NCBI GenBank assembly: GCA_016839365.1
Contig: JAEOUH010000063.1
Location: 1 to 58,217, forward strand
Length of the DNA stretch: 58,217 bases
Direction of reading: 5' to 3'
DNA from: Candidatus Hermodarchaeota archaeon
GTDB lineage: Archaea; Asgardarchaeota; Hermodarchaeia; Hermodarchaeales; Hermodarchaeaceae
Shown here: one piece after another, positions 1,896 to 33,904 of the stretch
Layout: every line of letters begins with the position of its first letter
How positions within the stretch are numbered: position 1 is the stretch's first letter
Translations under genes and position numbers: made by a program
Notes under the pieces: generated by a model
The model's input: only the letters and a program-made list of their open reading frames with translations
What the model was told of the DNA's origin: nothing
The model's database searches: none

Positions 1896-2258
1896 ATGCA
1901 AATAGTTATGACAATTGTTAACTTCATTGTTCAATGGTTCATCATGGCGTTCATCATTATGCTTTCTGCCAAGATGGTTGCTGGCATGGAAGCCACCTTC
2001 ATGAAAGCACTAATCGCCTCATTGATTGGAAGCCTCATCGCCGCAATTCTTGCGTGGGCGTTTCAAACATTTCTAGCAATCTTCTGGTGGGCTGCCGGTA
2101 TCGTTATCTTCATTGTCTGGCTGCTCATCATCAGGTACTACTTCCAAACGGGCTGTATCGGCGCCTTGATAGTGGCAATACTAGCATTTATCATCTATCT
2201 GATCTTTGCTTGGCTCTTCTATGTCTTTCTAGTTCCATTCTTGCCGCCACTGCCTTAG
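1896..2258 (+). CDS. Small integral membrane protein (about 4 TM)
   Basis: Almost entirely hydrophobic ORF with a TATA-like TATAAA upstream at about 1834. Confidence 0.75.
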   Translation: MQIVMTIVNFIVQWFIMAFIIMLSAKMVAGMEATFMKALIASLIGSLIAAILAWAFQTFLAIFWWAAGIVIFIVWLLIIRYYFQTGCIGALIVAILAFIIYLIFAWLFYVFLVPFLPPLP

Positions 2259-2277
2259 TAAGCTGCTCTTCTTCCCT

Positions 2278-2314
2278 GGGGGGCCTTTGGGGCTCCCTTT
2301 TCCTTTCTTTTTTT
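2278..2314 (+). terminator. Hairpin plus pyrimidine/T tract terminator
   Basis: GGGGGCC-TTTG-GGGCTCCC followed by TTTTCCTTTCTTTTTTT just after the stop at 2258. Confidence 0.5.
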
Positions 2315-2370
2315 AAGAAAATTATCTTAGGAAACTTAGGCACGAAACGAACCTTTATTATGAAGCCTAC

Positions 2371-3510
2371 GTGCTGAGAGAGCTTGGTGAGTCTACGCTG
2401 GCACGCGCATTATTGGCTATGTTACGGCATGATGTGCATGATCATACTGAATGGCCATTAGAGTTAGAAGAGTTTCTCAGCCTCGTTGAAGCTGCAGGGT
2501 TTGAAGTAGTTGAAACGATACTGCAAACTCGAATGCGCCCTCATGGGGGCTTTCTCTTTGGGCGCGGAAAAGTCGAGGAGATTGCACAGATAGTAGCCAT
2601 GGAAGACATCGAAAGTGTGGCGGTCTATAACGTATTGACCTCGATGCAAAAGTTCAATCTGCAACGGGCTTTGGGGGTTCCAGTACTGGACCGGTATGAG
2701 ATTGTGTTACAGGTGTTTGGAAAGGAGGCTCGTGATAACGTATCGCAGCTGCAGTTGGAATTGGCTGCTTTGAAGAAGAGCTATCCATACATCAAAGTCA
2801 CCGAGAGTGAGCGGTTAATACGCGAACGGCCTGCCAGATTGGGTGGTAGGGGTCCGGGTGAATATGCTTATCATGCCCAGCTCCGTCAGCTGCGAAAGCG
2901 AATCGCTAAGGTGAGTGCGGAGTTAGCTCAGTATCGGGAGGAACATCGTCGGCGAATGCACAAACGCCGGGAACTAGACGTTCCAATGGTGTGTTTAGTC
3001 GGTTGTTACAATGCTGGTAAGACCAGTCTATTCAATGCATTGACCGGTGCTGACAAAGAGGTCAGTGATCGCCCGTTCACCACTTTGGCCTCGAAGTGGG
3101 CCATGACGGGAAATCCCGAGATATTCTTCATCGACACCATTGGGTTTGCCTTAGATTTAGATCCTGAGCTCATCTCTGCATTCCAACTTAACCTCGATGA
3201 TATGCGGGGTGCCGATATTCTCCTCCTGGTCGTTGATGTGTCCGATTCCTTCCAATTAATGCAGATGAAAATGCGAAGTGCCTTGGAAATCCTCCATGGA
3301 ACTGGAATCGATGAATCAAGGATCCTTATCGTGTTGAACAAAACGGACCTGGTGGATCCTGAGCAAGCCGCAGAAGTTGCTGACTTCATCGATGCCACAT
3401 ATGGGTTTTCGTCCGTATTGGTTTCCGCCGCAAAGGAATGGAATCTTACCCATCTTACAGATTGTATTCGTCATCTGTTTGAGGTTGTAGGAGTCAATTT
3501 GGTAAATTAA
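2371..3510 (+). CDS. hflX: Ribosome-splitting GTPase HflX
   Basis: N-terminal 'LFGRGKVEEI', 'LQLELAAL', 'GRGPGE'. G1 GCYNAGKT, G2 FTTL, G3 DTIG, G4 NKTD. Confidence 0.92.
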   Translation: MLRELGESTLARALLAMLRHDVHDHTEWPLELEEFLSLVEAAGFEVVETILQTRMRPHGGFLFGRGKVEEIAQIVAMEDIESVAVYNVLTSMQKFNLQRALGVPVLDRYEIVLQVFGKEARDNVSQLQLELAALKKSYPYIKVTESERLIRERPARLGGRGPGEYAYHAQLRQLRKRIAKVSAELAQYREEHRRRMHKRRELDVPMVCLVGCYNAGKTSLFNALTGADKEVSDRPFTTLASKWAMTGNPEIFFIDTIGFALDLDPELISAFQLNLDDMRGADILLLVVDVSDSFQLMQMKMRSALEILHGTGIDESRILIVLNKTDLVDPEQAAEVADFIDATYGFSSVLVSAAKEWNLTHLTDCIRHLFEVVGVNLVN

Positions 3511-27849: not shown

Positions 27850-29619
27850 CTATAATGGTCGATTCTCCTCTTCTAGAAAGAATGTTGCGGATGATGGTGT
27901 AAATGGCTGATAATGAGAAACAAGTCGCGTGAAATGGTGCTCAGGACCTATTGACATGGCTGCATCAATCCAGATATAGCTGACTTCTTGACCGAAGCGT
28001 TCAGTAGAGAAGCGACCGAACATTTGAGATAAGTAGGTTTGGAGCACTTGTCGGCGTCGGGTAAGGATTCCAATCTGTGTTTGGATCTTCTTCCGATTCA
28101 AAGTTTTTGTTTCTTCGCGTTGACGGGTAATGAGGGTATTTCTTTCCTTTTCGATTTGAGATTCAGCTTTCACAAGGTTCTCAAAAGTTTCGGTAATATG
28201 CTCTTCACTCGCAGCGAAAAGCGACTGAATAACACCCATGTTCTCTTCCCGGTACCCGGTCTGGATGGCGGACTTGAAGCATTGAAGTTCCTCATGGCTA
28301 AGAGGATTCAGTCCTTCACGTACAAGGCGTTTAGCAGTTCGGGATACCCAGGGGTTTTCATAGTATAAGCGGGTGTAACGATAGAAAATCGGCACGATGC
28401 TGTTGGCTGCTCTAAGGGCTGGAGCAACTTGAGCATGGTAGCTGGTCTCACCTGCTCCACCAACATGGAGGATGACAGGCGTGTAGCTTTGAACAAGAAA
28501 TGCTCGTGAGTCGACTCGTGGTGAAAGAAATTGTTCCCATTCGGTAAGATCGGGAGCATTCGCCTTCGTTTCAATCGTGTGCTTCGTTTTACATTTCGGA
28601 CAAGTCGCAGAGAGGGTCGTGTGACCTAATGATGGCTCTGCGGTTATTATCGGATCAAGGCGTGTTCGATGACAATCTTTTGTGGGGCATTCAAGATGGA
28701 AAGGAACATAATCATCCGCTCGTCGACCTATACCCGGTTCATATCCTAGTTGTTCTAAATTGGTCGCACTTTCATTAAGTGCATGGATTAGGGTTTGTCG
28801 ATTTGGTTCCGCAAGCAGAAATTCGAATGCAGGCAACATTAATTCTCGAATCGCTGGATTAGAAAAAACTTGGAAAAGAATCCCAGCATCACGGGCCATA
28901 TTCACAATCCGTAGCCAAAGATATGTGGTCCAATCTGAGATTGTAGTTGCTTGGGCATGAGTTGTTTCCAAGATTTTTCGAAGATCATCGGCACGTTGTT
29001 CATAGAGGTTCTGATTCTTCTTCGCGGACCCAGCTACTAATTCATGATATGTTGCTGATATTTTTTCATTGACCTGTTTCAACCAATCCCTCGATGGCTT
29101 TGGTATAACGTGCATTGGCGACATCCGATATGCTGCAGGAACTGGCAACGAAAAAGTCAAGCCACGGGGTCCCGGACTTGGTAGATGAACGACGGTTAAT
29201 TCTTTCTGTTCATGATCATGATCACCAACAAACATTACAGGCGTCGCTCGTTGAAGTGCAGCAATTTTTGTAATAGCCGCCATTTTGTTTATCACAAACC
29301 CCGGTCCTCCTAGGAGGGCAGGCTGGTGTCCCGCTTCAATGACGGCTCCCTGCTCCTCAAGCTTTGCTAGATTCTCCTTTGTCTGTGGCGTGACCATCCC
29401 GAATTGTTGGTGGATGGCCTTTATACTCTGGCATAATTTCTTCAGACGCTCCTGGGAGTACAAGGGTTGGTATTTAGAGTACTTGCCAATTATGGGCGTA
29501 CTCAGGCTCATGGCTTCCTTGATATGGTGTGGAATAGGTCCCCAAAATTGAACCGCTGCATCGTTTCCATCAAATATGTAATCGGCGAAGAATTTACTGG
29601 ATGAGGGCTTTGGAGTCAC
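27850..29619 (-). CDS. bshC: Bacillithiol cysteine-adding enzyme BshC-like protein with a four-Cys insertion
   Basis: 'IEAGHQPALLGGP..VINK' (cf. BshC TGQQ..LF.GP...YK), 'GDHDH.E' (cf. EDHD..E), 'LSPRV' (cf. FSPNV), 'VGGAGETSYHAQ' (cf. VGGPGE..Y..Q), C-terminal coiled coil. GTG 29619 has a GGAGGAG SD. Confidence 0.75.
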   Translation of the reverse strand: MTPKPSSSKFFADYIFDGNDAAVQFWGPIPHHIKEAMSLSTPIIGKYSKYQPLYSQERLKKLCQSIKAIHQQFGMVTPQTKENLAKLEEQGAVIEAGHQPALLGGPGFVINKMAAITKIAALQRATPVMFVGDHDHEQKELTVVHLPSPGPRGLTFSLPVPAAYRMSPMHVIPKPSRDWLKQVNEKISATYHELVAGSAKKNQNLYEQRADDLRKILETTHAQATTISDWTTYLWLRIVNMARDAGILFQVFSNPAIRELMLPAFEFLLAEPNRQTLIHALNESATNLEQLGYEPGIGRRADDYVPFHLECPTKDCHRTRLDPIITAEPSLGHTTLSATCPKCKTKHTIETKANAPDLTEWEQFLSPRVDSRAFLVQSYTPVILHVGGAGETSYHAQVAPALRAANSIVPIFYRYTRLYYENPWVSRTAKRLVREGLNPLSHEELQCFKSAIQTGYREENMGVIQSLFAASEEHITETFENLVKAESQIEKERNTLITRQREETKTLNRKKIQTQIGILTRRRQVLQTYLSQMFGRFSTERFGQEVSYIWIDAAMSIGPEHHFTRLVSHYQPFTPSSATFFLEEENRPL

Positions 29620-30844
29620 GGTTTGGCTCCTCCTTGGTCGCCTGTCGAACGGCGAGTCCAACGAGAAAGGTTAGGAAGCCTAGTGTAAGAATGAGGGCAA
29701 TTAGTGTTGCCATATTGGTCGCTAGGTAATCGGCATCGATTATTGGGATGGAGCCAAGGGATGTCCATTCTTCCAATTCAATTCGATGAATTTCGTAGGT
29801 GAATAGGTTGGTTTCTTCAGCCCGTCTTTTTGCAATGTAATCACTGGATTCAATTTGCCACAAAGTGACAAATGGTAAAGTTGATGCAAATAGAGACTCT
29901 GTGTAGGCCTCGATGGGATTTGCTCCCTGTTCTAGAGAATACAAATCAAATGGTAACCACCCCCACGGTGGGATATACGCCATGACCCATCCATGACCCA
30001 CTGAATTATGATAATCAACATACCGGTAAGCATTGTCTTCCAATGATCCCCAAATGAAACCACTGGTTCGTGCTCCCTCTTGGAACCAATGCCCTGTCGT
30101 CAGATAGCTGGGAATGCCATAGATGCGTAGAAAGGTTATGAGGAGATTGGATTGGTCATCACAATCGCCAATCATACTAACAATAGTTTCTTCAGGGTAT
30201 TGGGGCTCAGTAACTCCAGTTGATCTGCTGATATTATCTTGAATCCATTGAATTGCCAAAAGAACTAGCGATAGAGCATCTTGGCGGGGATACGGTTGTT
30301 GGCTTGGAATCTGGTCAGCAATAAGCTGTGCAATTTCGATGAGGGTGGCATTTCCTGTTTTCCATAAGGATGTTCCCCGTGTATAAAGTGAGTAGTCCTC
30401 AGGTTCCATAAGCAATTGGATATCGTCGAGAGTGCCAGCCTGGGCAATACTGATGTGCGGAAGCGTTGGGCGCCGATTAACAACGGCAAAAAGCCATTCT
30501 TCATCCCAGCTCAAAATTTCTCCAGGTTGCACCCGCGAAGAAAGGTTCAAGGTCAGGCGTGGGTTCCCATCCGCATCGATATCAATATCTGTGATTTCAA
30601 CTGGTGACTCATTTAGTGTCATTCTAAAAGAGATCTGCTCGCAGGTCTGCCAGGTAGTATTGCCAATGTAATTCCAATAAGGGCCGATCGGCATTGATAC
30701 TTCTCCATTTACTTCGAGGGATCCTGAGAAATGTGTCCGCCAATAATGAATATAATTGAATGCTGATACGGGGGGTGGAAGAGACGCCATAGCTAATAAT
30801 AACAAGAGGATTACCGGTATTAGCCATAAACGAAACTTGTGCAT
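29594..30844 (-). CDS. Secreted, membrane-anchored transglutaminase-like protein
   Basis: Signal peptide, catalytic GDCDD / HGW / WLPFD triad, C-terminal TM segment. Confidence 0.82.
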   Translation of the reverse strand: MHKFRLWLIPVILLLLLAMASLPPPVSAFNYIHYWRTHFSGSLEVNGEVSMPIGPYWNYIGNTTWQTCEQISFRMTLNESPVEITDIDIDADGNPRLTLNLSSRVQPGEILSWDEEWLFAVVNRRPTLPHISIAQAGTLDDIQLLMEPEDYSLYTRGTSLWKTGNATLIEIAQLIADQIPSQQPYPRQDALSLVLLAIQWIQDNISRSTGVTEPQYPEETIVSMIGDCDDQSNLLITFLRIYGIPSYLTTGHWFQEGARTSGFIWGSLEDNAYRYVDYHNSVGHGWVMAYIPPWGWLPFDLYSLEQGANPIEAYTESLFASTLPFVTLWQIESSDYIAKRRAEETNLFTYEIHRIELEEWTSLGSIPIIDADYLATNMATLIALILTLGFLTFLVGLAVRQATKEEPNRDSKALIQ

Positions 30845-31141
30845 AGTGACCAGCCGTGCCCCTAGTCCTATTAGCTGAAATCAAATGATATAAGCTCTCT
30901 CTTTTTGCTATGTTCAAAAAAGGCATTGCAAAGGCTCACCATTCGTGGGTTTTTTCTTTTGGTGCAGGGGGTATTACCACCTCTTTTAGGCAAGAAAGAT
31001 GAAAGGAATAGAAATACGATTATCATTTTGAGGGAAGCCAATCTGGATCCAAAGGTTTGCCCACTATTCCAGCGACGCCTTTCAATGAGAGGAGCCATAT
31101 GGTGACCCTTGAAATGAAACGGACTGGGCGAGGATATCAAA

Positions 31142-31627
31142 ATGAAGTTAGGCGAGGTAGCTCGACACGTTATTACATTTCTAAATGAACACTCTGACCA
31201 GGAATTCACCGCTAATACCCTCCTGATGCACCTAGGCTTGCCACTCCAAGAAAAACGACGGCTTTACGATGTTATTGAGGTTCTCAGTTGTGCTGGGCTT
31301 GTCTCTATTCGAAAAGAGGCCCGAAAACGGTACTTCAATTGGAAGCCATTACCGTCCCTAACGACCACCGAGACGATGGACATGGATATGACGCCAGATC
31401 CTCTATTTCAAGAGGCTGGTACAATTCTGCACCTTCTACTGCACTTGAATCCTGGTGCATTCCAAGAACTCAGTAATGACTCTGCAGTTAAAATGCTGGA
31501 GCGAGATGTTAAACGAACCATCTGGGGCGCTAATGCAGTCAGTGTTGTTAAAGTATCACTCCAAGATAAGGTGGGTCGGATTTTAAAAGAGACCTCAACT
31601 GGAGAGGCGCACGTAGCGGCATATTAG
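31142..31627 (+). CDS. E2F/DP-like winged-helix DNA-binding protein
   Basis: KLGEVARHVITFL...EKRRLYDVIEVLSCAGLV...YFNWK follows the E2F pattern SLG.L...F..LL...KRRIYDITNVLEGIGLI...WKG. Confidence 0.75.
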   Translation: MKLGEVARHVITFLNEHSDQEFTANTLLMHLGLPLQEKRRLYDVIEVLSCAGLVSIRKEARKRYFNWKPLPSLTTTETMDMDMTPDPLFQEAGTILHLLLHLNPGAFQELSNDSAVKMLERDVKRTIWGANAVSVVKVSLQDKVGRILKETSTGEAHVAAY

Positions 31628-31693: not shown

Positions 31694-32098
31694 CTAGTCA
31701 TCCTTAGCAAGATCCTTCTTGACGGCTTCATAAAAACTGACTTCATCTTCGCCACGACGTTTCACAGTAATCTTTGATTCAACGCCTTCGAGTTTTCGTT
31801 GCACTAGTATCACACCAGTTTTCGGAATGCGATTAATCAGTTGTCCACGGAGGTATAAGGCAATGGCCAGGTCTTCAATCCGTTCAGCTACTACTGGTTT
31901 GATTTGTTTCAACTCATTAAGGTAGATGACTGCATCAGGAAGAAAGAGCGCTTCTATGATTTTTTCTCGTTCGGTCTCTCGTTGCTTTATCCGTTCCTCG
32001 GTTTCGAGTCTTAGGGCCTCCTGTTGCGCTTGCTCTTTCAGTAGCGCTTGCATTTTGCGTTCTCGTATGCGTTTGAGCTCATCAGCATCTTGGGGCAT
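31694..32098 (-). CDS. PDCD5/TFAR19-family DNA-binding protein
   Basis: 'DELKRIRERKMQAL', 'L..LKQIKPVVAERIEDLAIALYLRGQL', 'KITVKRR'. Confidence 0.8.
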   Translation of the reverse strand: MPQDADELKRIRERKMQALLKEQAQQEALRLETEERIKQRETEREKIIEALFLPDAVIYLNELKQIKPVVAERIEDLAIALYLRGQLINRIPKTGVILVQRKLEGVESKITVKRRGEDEVSFYEAVKKDLAKDD

Positions 32099-32203
32099 TG
32101 AAGTCACCCTACGCCGAAAGGGTGGCACCAGTCCAGTACTTTTATAGGTTTCGGGTTTTCTGAATTACGTCCCAAGTGACGTAATCCTCAAAAGGTATGA
32201 TCC

Positions 32204-33292: not shown

Positions 33293-33472
33293 ATAAAACT
33301 CTTCATCTACGCAATGAGATTCTGGGATGAAACCAAACACTTTAAAGTTCGTATTAGAGTAATCGACTCTCCTCACCATGTTGCAGGAGGATTCTAATCA
33401 TTCTGCAACACGTCAAAGGACAACTGGTGAAACCAGTATACAACCAAACTAGAGATGGAGGAAACTCCCAAA

Positions 33473-33904
33473 ATGTCTAAAGAAACAGAATCTGCTGAGA
33501 CCGTCGAACCTGAAGAAGCTAAAGCTAAAGAACCTTCAGCTGAAGAAGAAAAAGACAAAAAAGTTGCAAAGAAAAAAGAAGCCAAACCTGAAGCAAAAAC
33601 AGAAGCAAAGGCGGAAGCTCCCAAATCACGCCGTGATGAGAGCGTCGTCTTTGTTGGCAGCAAACCGCTAATGAGCTATATCACTGCTTGTGTCACCCAG
33701 CTGAACCGAAATCCTGAGGAACTCGTGATCAAGGCCCGGGGGCGAGCCATCAGTCGCGCTGTAGACGTGGCCGAAGTGCTTCGAAACCGTTTCATGCCTG
33801 ATCTCATAGTGCGTCAAATCGATATTTCCACTGAACAAGTCAAGACAGCCGAAGGCAACGTAGCGAACGTCTCAGCGATGGAGATAACGCTGGCTCGTAA
33901 GTAA
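33473..33904 (+). CDS. albA: DNA/RNA-binding protein Alba with a charged N-terminal extension
   Basis: 'VFVGSKPLMSY', 'IKARGRAISRAVDVAE', 'VSAMEITL'. GGAGG precedes ATG 33473. Confidence 0.93.
   Translation: MSKETESAETVEPEEAKAKEPSAEEEKDKKVAKKKEAKPEAKTEAKAEAPKSRRDESVVFVGSKPLMSYITACVTQLNRNPEELVIKARGRAISRAVDVAEVLRNRFMPDLIVRQIDISTEQVKTAEGNVANVSAMEITLARK

Follow-up and report, generated by a model that had tools for sequence, protein, structure and literature searches.

The window analysed here is the whole stretch of 58,217 nucleotides from a Candidatus Hermodarchaeota archaeon (contig JAEOUH010000063.1 of assembly GCA_016839365.1), and the element in question is an open reading frame (ORF) at 31142-31627 on the plus strand, which encodes a protein of 161 amino acids followed by a stop codon. 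The protein is almost certainly a DNA-binding protein of the E2F/DP family, with an RRxYD recognition helix in its N-terminal winged helix. It starts with MKLGEVARHVITFL and includes KRRLYDVIEVLSCAGLV and NWKP, and three parts can be distinguished: the E2F/DP-type winged-helix DNA-binding domain (residues 1-68, 31142-31345), which contains the recognition motif RRLYD (R39, R40, L41, Y42, D43; 31256-31270), a variable, mildly acidic linker TTTETMDMDMTPDP (residues 69-85, 31346-31396) and a subfamily-specific C-terminal domain (residues ~86-153, 31397-31600), whose invariant alignment columns include the motifs DPLF.EAGT, AFQELSN, MLERDVKR and GANAVSV. The source genome comprises 2.2 Mb in 93 contigs, is 84% complete and contains a single E2F_TDP match in a six-frame profile search (35.7 bits). 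The gene is preceded by a non-coding stretch of 297 bp (30845-31141) and is convergent with a PDCD5-type gene at 31694-32128 on the minus strand, which scores 32.2 bits for Pfam dsDNA_bind (cut-off 26); an Alba gene (33455-33904, plus strand, Pfam 68.8 bits) lies 2 kb from it, with unrelated genes intervening. The first-pass annotation of this DNA had described the locus in these terms, namely an E2F-like gene with an acidic linker and a domain of about 70 residues, an upstream region of about 300 bp, a PDCD5 gene in convergent orientation and Alba about 2 kb away, and its description was accurate throughout.

The same annotation had recognized the E2F/DP DNA-binding domain in the first 70 or so residues, and the profile search that it had suggested bears this out. 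Residues 3-67 match the Pfam family E2F_TDP (PF02319) with an E-value of 1.9e-8 and a score of 34.4 bits (curated cut-off 25.7), and the match spans positions 5-63 of the 65 profile positions. A better score for TrmB or other generic winged-helix families had been named as a refutation: TrmB reached 15.1 bits with a gathering score of 25.6, and F-93 reached 13.6 bits, so that the protein does not belong to TrmB by this measure. The same E2F_TDP match is present in the precomputed annotation of all 33 database homologs. A lack of RRxYD conservation had been named as another, but R39, R40, Y42 and D43 are invariant in 20 aligned homologs and in distant members from two further Asgard families, f2 and f20; RRLYD aligns with RRIYD of E2F4 and E2F8. 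When a profile of the N-terminal domain was compared with the sequences of the PDB, only E2F8 (1.3e-4) and E2F4 (2e-3) were significant. An AlphaFold2 (AF2) model shows a winged helix with the layout helix-helix-helix-strand-strand for residues 1-70, with a predicted local distance difference test (pLDDT) of 77-90, and a pLDDT below 50 over residues 72-85 of the linker, which is also poorly conserved among the 20 homologs. In the proposed fold comparison with the E2F4-DP2-DNA complex, the model can be superposed on E2F4 (1cf7_A; template modelling score (TM) 0.73, 27% identity, root mean square deviation 2.4 over 67 columns); E2F4 appears in Foldseek at rank 41 (E 5e-2), and winged helices of the ArsR/HlyU/NolR type (E 4e-3 to 5e-2) rank above it. 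The fold alone does not discriminate between winged-helix families; the sequence does.

Eukaryotic E2F/DP proteins (PF02319; E2F4-DP2-DNA structure 1CF7, E2F8-DNA structure 4YO2) possess the same winged helix, in which helix 3 carries RRxYD, and E2F4 and the window protein agree in how the L-x-L/V-x-x-KRR.YD turn is spaced. In contrast to the eukaryotic proteins, however, the window protein has only 161 amino acids and is encoded by a single-copy gene without a heterodimer partner in the genome. At E <= 1, Pfam revealed no coiled-coil/marked-box region (E2F_CC-MB) and no DP dimerisation, transactivation or pocket-protein-binding region in it; the protein ends after the C-terminal domain, with no further region, and no search for Rb was made in the genome. 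The C-terminal domain is unrelated by sequence to eukaryotic E2F/DP. As neither a CC-MB nor a DP dimerisation domain was found, the protein is a member of the domain family and not an E2F/DP ortholog in architecture. TrmB and ArsR-SmtB regulators have the general winged-helix fold in common with it; however, they lack RRxYD and occur in a different domain context, and the window protein stays below their family cut-offs.

The gene family is already known, because Asgard E2F/DP homologs, including a close Hermodarchaeia ortholog, were listed by Eme et al. in 2023 (Nature 618:992, PMC10307638; Supplement 4.1.5 and table of eukaryotic signature proteins; arCOG02749). The table entry "E2F/DP PF02319 Hermodarchaeia_WORB2_22320" has the same full layout as the window protein, including the C-terminal FQEL.N and MLERD.KR motifs, and closely resembles P0015, a database homolog with 72% identity to the window protein. 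The metagenome-assembled genomes that carry the database homologs are labelled Thor-, Hod- or Promethearchaeota at NCBI. Eme et al. further state that the base-contact residues are conserved in Asgard E2F/DP, which suggests similar DNA motifs, and that the regulator-binding domains are lacking; no subfamilies, private C-terminal domain, target sites or structured leader are described there (PMC10307638).

Among 301 Asgard genomes from 30 families, E2F_TDP is found in 123, patchily by family, and it is absent from all 14 control genomes; within the class to which the window belongs, orthologs are present in 17 of 19 genomes. The comparison of 20 further extracted Asgard E2F-like genes revealed two architectures. 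The majority, termed type A, consists of a winged helix, a coiled coil and a beta-rich tail with the pattern 'F..L.IR...G.EV.IE..G..V.P' and is represented, for example, by loci L019-L038 from families f6, f13, f14, f15 and f18. These proteins are small and mostly encoded by single-copy genes, and their N-terminal domain is homologous to that of the window protein, including RRxYD, but the turn before KRR.YD is three residues shorter. Type B consists of a winged helix, a linker and the domain of about 70 residues. The profile of this domain finds members only in f1 (16 of 18 genomes), f2 (4 of 4; genomes of 1.3-1.4 Mb) and f20 (3 of 3), and in every case the domain follows a winged helix; genomes of f20 carry type A alongside type B. 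The f2 and f20 proteins can be aligned with the window protein collinearly over the full length, and the core motif L.N...M..RD.KR of the C-terminal domain is invariant across the alignments, whereas hhalign aligns type B with type A over the winged helix only (columns 1-75, probability score 98.9, E 3e-17). As judged from these alignments, the window protein belongs to a minority subfamily, type B, with a private C-terminal domain.

The first-pass annotation had called this domain one of unknown type, and no relative emerged by any of the approaches used. Apart from its own family, phmmer against 1.8 billion representatives returned P0034, a protein of 613 amino acids that was rejected as a tandem-repeat artefact. 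No Pfam relative was found, and the profile of the domain matched no E2F or DP chain among the PDB sequences; a likeness to the PAS domain of CitA (PDB profile, E 0.07) is weak and non-collinear and was discarded. Fold searches reached a best Z of 3.4 with VIA-align over 48,161 chains and a best TM of 0.45 in the ESM Atlas; however, the confidence of the model is moderate (pLDDT 72), and a new fold is therefore not demonstrated. An hhalign comparison of the C-terminal domain with the protein's own N-terminal domain gave no match, and the domain is thus not a detectable second winged helix of the kind known from E2F7/8. It might serve pairing or signal input, but this role is a guess. The predicted two-copy complex, which was based on an alignment of 20 homologs, scored 0.36 with a mark of 0.42 and can be used neither for nor against a homodimer.

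The palindromic E2F consensus is TTTSGCGCSAAA. E2F-type words of the form TTTSSCGC occur 14 times in intergenic DNA of the source genome (17 expected), and two of these 14 sites lie upstream of orc1/cdc6 (G000:C76:2168) and ftsZ (G000:C74:4239); chance would be expected to produce roughly 0.1 such matches, as an estimate. Both sites read TTTGGCGCCAAT, a 12-mer, which is the sole feature that they have in common. Its centre, TTGGCGCCAA, is a perfect palindrome and forms the core of the E2F consensus. The palindrome TTGGCGCCAA is present in four copies in the 2.2 Mb, of which one is coding and another falls within an uncalled rpl39e frame, so that only the copies upstream of orc1/cdc6 and cdrS-ftsZ are truly intergenic.

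The orc1 site precedes the ATG by 148 bp. The region in which it lies contains an ORB (origin recognition box)-like TTTCCAGTGGAAAT and a G-string and is probably a replication origin. SGCGCS is found at about -148 in all 14 upstream regions of orc1 from the class, the E2F-type word SGCGCSAAW in 12 of 14 and the exact palindrome in 3 of 14. The other two type-B families carry similar elements, TTGGCGCG-TGTGAA at -148 in f20 and AAGCGCCAT at about -152 in f2, together in 5 of 5 genomes. When the window from -200 to -110 of orc1 was scanned for a GCGCC/GGCGC core as a control, matches were obtained in 2 of 29 genomes of f6, which has type A, and in none of 21 genomes of f9 and 25 genomes of f4, both of which are devoid of E2F. 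A GC core about 150 bp upstream of orc1 is thus present in 19 of 19 genomes of type-B families versus 2 of 75 in three other families; since relatives are not independent, this comparison amounts to three families versus three. The probable origin itself (G000:C76:1900-2316, locus L051, outside the window) shows the ORB-like element followed by the G-string, along with repeats of the hexamers GTTAAC/GTGAAC; just before the orc1 start codon lies a conserved dyad around CCAAAAGAAAC...TATTTCCTTTGG; these origin elements are conserved in 14 genomes.

The second site lies about 265 bp upstream of a cdrS-like gene, which directly precedes ftsZ (G000:C74:4491-4673, L052:2491-2673). This gene encodes a CopG-type ribbon-helix-helix (RHH) protein of 55-60 amino acids (RHH_1, 26 bits), overlaps slightly with ftsZ and is found before ftsZ in 13 of 13 genomes of the genus and 30 of 30 genomes of f6, versus 0 of 27 genomes of f9. 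At this locus, TTGGCGCCAA forms an invariant 10-bp island amid diverged DNA in all 13 genus genomes with the ftsZ locus. Its distance to a downstream promoter-like GGTAATACT box is constant, whereas insertions alter its spacing to a divergent tRNA, which one genome lacks altogether; the palindrome therefore belongs to the cdrS-ftsZ side. The same layout, with an RHH gene directly upstream of ftsZ, is described for the CdrS/CdrL system of haloarchaea (PMC7439475, PMC8406309); the regulators of the haloarchaeal cdrS-ftsZ2 locus, however, are RHH proteins, whereas here an E2F-type palindrome occurs together with a candidate winged-helix reader. Upstream of ftsZ in Odin-like genomes and in f20, the GC cores are loose ones only, which speak neither for nor against a conserved site. 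As a separate observation, the tRNA beside the palindrome (G000:C74:4085-4195, minus strand), which was read by eye as tRNA-Leu(GAG), has an apparent intron outside the anticodon loop and was not called by ARAGORN. In the complete 1.418-Mb Odin-like genome, ftsZ1 (minus strand) and orc1/cdc6 (plus strand) are divergent and 3 kb apart (G019:C1:620217-625541), and both candidate type-B target genes are thus physically linked there.

Several further E2F-like words were noted. A third TTGGCGCCAA, at G000:C85:22151, appeared to be intergenic but lies inside the uncalled rpl39e frame, where it covers the codons N-W-R-Q and shows the wobble pattern TTGGCGNCAA in relatives. This small gene (G000:C85:22111-22301, minus strand, ending with ...HPKRRNWRQSKLKP) was missed, being below the ORF threshold of 70 amino acids; short ribosomal protein genes thus create false intergenic motif matches. 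Other intergenic SGCGCCAA words, before MgtE, CorA, BacA and PCMT genes, have no cell-cycle link. Those upstream of two Mg2+ transporter genes, MgtE (G000:C16:5798, 100 bp) and CorA (G000:C31:1485, 411 bp), read CGCGCCAA, and ACGCGCCAATAAT is common to the MgtE site and the site beside the BacA gene; these shared words may be a coincidence or may mark another small regulon. In the window, an exact E2F-type half-site TTTGGCGC is found at 1862-1869 on the minus strand (plus-strand context GGGAGCGCCAAAAAC), 65 bp upstream of an ORF without a Pfam match (1934-2377, plus strand), and elsewhere GCGCGC lies upstream of a Vps23-like gene beside ESCRT-III genes.

The best overall explanation, to which we give about an even chance, is that the window protein is a type-B Asgard E2F/DP factor that acts on orc1/cdc6 and cdrS-ftsZ. 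A pair of protein molecules would recognize palindromes with a GGCGCC core of the E2F consensus type (TTGGCGCCAA), one molecule per half. The candidate sites would be situated ahead of two promoters, that of the replication initiator gene orc1/cdc6, by the origin, and that of the division operon cdrS-ftsZ. The position of the sites upstream of the core promoters suggests activation, and the start of replication and the expression of division genes might thereby be coupled, with the C-terminal domain serving pairing or signal input. That the factor reads the GGCGCC palindromes at these two loci is, taken by itself, a tentative proposal that we rate somewhat short of an even chance.

A number of observations weigh against this assignment of targets. 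TTTSSCGC is not enriched in the intergenic DNA of the genome. The first-pass annotation had seen in the protein a possible entry point to an archaeal cell-cycle regulon; the conservation of E2F-consensus palindromes at both orc1/cdc6 and cdrS-ftsZ is in keeping with this idea, but among about 13 replication and division genes that were located and checked, the others have no such site within 350 bp. The region upstream of the E2F-like gene itself also contains no canonical E2F site. The orc1 site forms part of a larger dyad in the origin region, the arms of which are GTTCAC/GTGAAC, and another origin- or promoter-binding protein could therefore read it; that three families have both the type-B gene and this site may be due to nothing more than common ancestry. 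At ftsZ, TTSGCGCSAA was found upstream in none of 30 genomes of f6 and none of 27 genomes of f9, and f6 possesses an equally good E2F-type winged helix of type A and a cdrS-ftsZ operon, yet has no such sites. In the sister genus g2 (G015-G018, 80-83% complete), a cdrS-linked ftsZ1 was found in none of four genomes, two of which contain only a second, more divergent tubulin-family gene; the missing FtsZ1 is either a real loss or a systematic assembly gap. The copies of TTGGCGCCAA in g2 are mostly coding or lie beside tRNA-Ala.

Some of these points lend weight to an alternative in which the protein is a genuine E2F/DP protein that controls other genes, and the sites with the GGCGCC core are read by a different, lineage-specific factor, either a protein that binds GTTCAC...GTGAAC at the origin or the RHH protein CdrS. 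This could well be the case, although we would not put it at quite an even chance. It would be in line with the longer dyad around the orc1 site and the neighbouring ORB-like TTCCAGTGGAAA and G-string, with the lack of such sites in type-A lineages with the same RRxYD helix, with the lack of genome-wide enrichment of E2F-type words, and with the RHH regulators, which are the known controllers of the haloarchaeal cdrS-ftsZ2 locus (PMC7439475, PMC8406309). However, the one feature that both sites share, TTTGGCGCCAAT, matches TTTSGCGCSAAA in its central ten bases, the GTGAAC arms are missing at the ftsZ site, and the GC core at orc1 is found alongside the type-B gene in three families, while three others lack it almost entirely.

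Far less probable is a role as a chromatin- or origin-associated architectural factor that acts together with the PDCD5-like and Alba neighbours. The gene order transglutaminase-like (minus strand), E2F-like (plus), PDCD5-like (minus) and M28 peptidase (plus) is kept in all 17 loci of the class, and one candidate site is located at the replication origin, both of which would fit such a role. This synteny, however, is confined to one class, the E2F-like and PDCD5-like genes are not co-transcribed because they are convergent, and Alba is separated from them by 2 kb with unrelated genes; the single gene copy, the invariant base-contact motif and the great rarity of the conserved palindromes are more in keeping with a specific regulator. 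A generic TrmB/ArsR/MarR-type regulator with a convergent or superficial likeness to E2F/DP is a very improbable reading: the weak Pfam matches to TrmB (15 bits) and F-93 and the higher Foldseek ranks of ArsR/HlyU/NolR-type folds stand against an E2F_TDP score 9 bits over its own cut-off along the whole profile, a TrmB score 10 bits under its own, the exclusive significance of E2F8 and E2F4 in the PDB profile search and the invariant residues of RRxYD, and the Foldseek ranking reflects the common fold, the 27% identity to E2F4 being among the highest listed (HlyU 25-28%).

Returning to the type-B factor acting on orc1/cdc6 and cdrS-ftsZ, its own synthesis is probably controlled post-transcriptionally via a structured 5' leader of about 130 nucleotides. 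The upstream alignment of 16 orthologous loci from both genera revealed a conserved core-promoter-like element GGTATTACC-N2-CTCTTTTAG some 155-170 bp before the ATG (30970-30989, plus strand), and a TTTTGAGGGAAGC block is conserved as well. The element presumably functions as the promoter, and transcription is predicted to start near 31000-31012. The arrangement GGTAATAC...CTTTTWA recurs before cdrS-ftsZ and other genes and is therefore a general promoter feature rather than an operator. Instances of the two-part motif GGTAATAC(C)-N2-6-CTTTTWA were noted at window positions 30970-30989, at about 2340 and 2460 of L052 and at about G000:C85:24250; it looks like a core promoter signature of the lineage and surpasses a plain TATA box in strength and regularity.

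Downstream of this element, RNAalifold predicted a 13-bp long-range helix from 13 orthologs, the 5' arm of which lies at 31021-31033 and the 3' arm at 31107-31119 (both plus strand), and which encloses a variable hairpin region. In this helix, 92% of cells are paired versus 40-56% in slid controls, seven pairs show two-sided changes, and none of 500 shuffles reaches the observed score; the predicted leader helix is thus supported by covariation. No Rfam family matched the upstream region of the gene. Just before the ATG, a GGACTGGGCGAGGATATC block (31121-31138, plus strand) is near-invariant in 13 genus genomes despite being non-coding; an in-frame TGA is located at 31115-31117. It contains the Shine-Dalgarno-like GAGGA, which probably takes part in ribosome binding, and GGACTGGGC as a further part.

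Two of the neighbouring genes deserve mention in their own right. The divergent gene at 29594-30844 (minus strand) encodes a membrane protein with a transglutaminase core, whose orthologs can be aligned only from residue 28, and a conserved promoter-like GCTTATATC box lies about 50 bp upstream of its start. The convergent PDCD5-type gene is one of two PDCD5/dsDNA_bind paralogs in the genome: the canonical paralog (G000:C85:22302-22649, minus strand; 90 bits) is part of an rpl39e-rpl31e-eif6-rplX-prefoldin cluster, and the divergent one (31694-32128, minus strand; 32 bits), which is extended at its N-terminus by a long charged stretch, is always convergent with the E2F-like gene.

In eukaryotes, the G1/S transition is driven by E2F/DP, and the classic targets of E2F include CDC6 and ORC1. 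Asgard E2F-like proteins have so far been catalogue entries without function, and a literature search found no report of Asgard E2F targets; a review from 2024 sees in Asgard E2F a hint that cell-cycle transcription is deeply conserved (PMC7617429). The family itself has thus been published, and what is added here is a defined subfamily, a leader with covariation support and a specific target hypothesis. The lineage offers a compact case, with one E2F-like gene, two very rare and deeply conserved palindromes of the E2F consensus and control lineages without them. It is tempting to speculate, albeit with less confidence than for the target sites themselves, that E2F-type control of Orc1/Cdc6 predates eukaryotes and that a single homodimeric factor at orc1/cdc6 and cdrS-ftsZ would constitute a minimal archaeal G1/S-plus-division switch, with the C-terminal domain as regulatory input. 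If this were true, the link of E2F to replication initiation would be older than eukaryotes.

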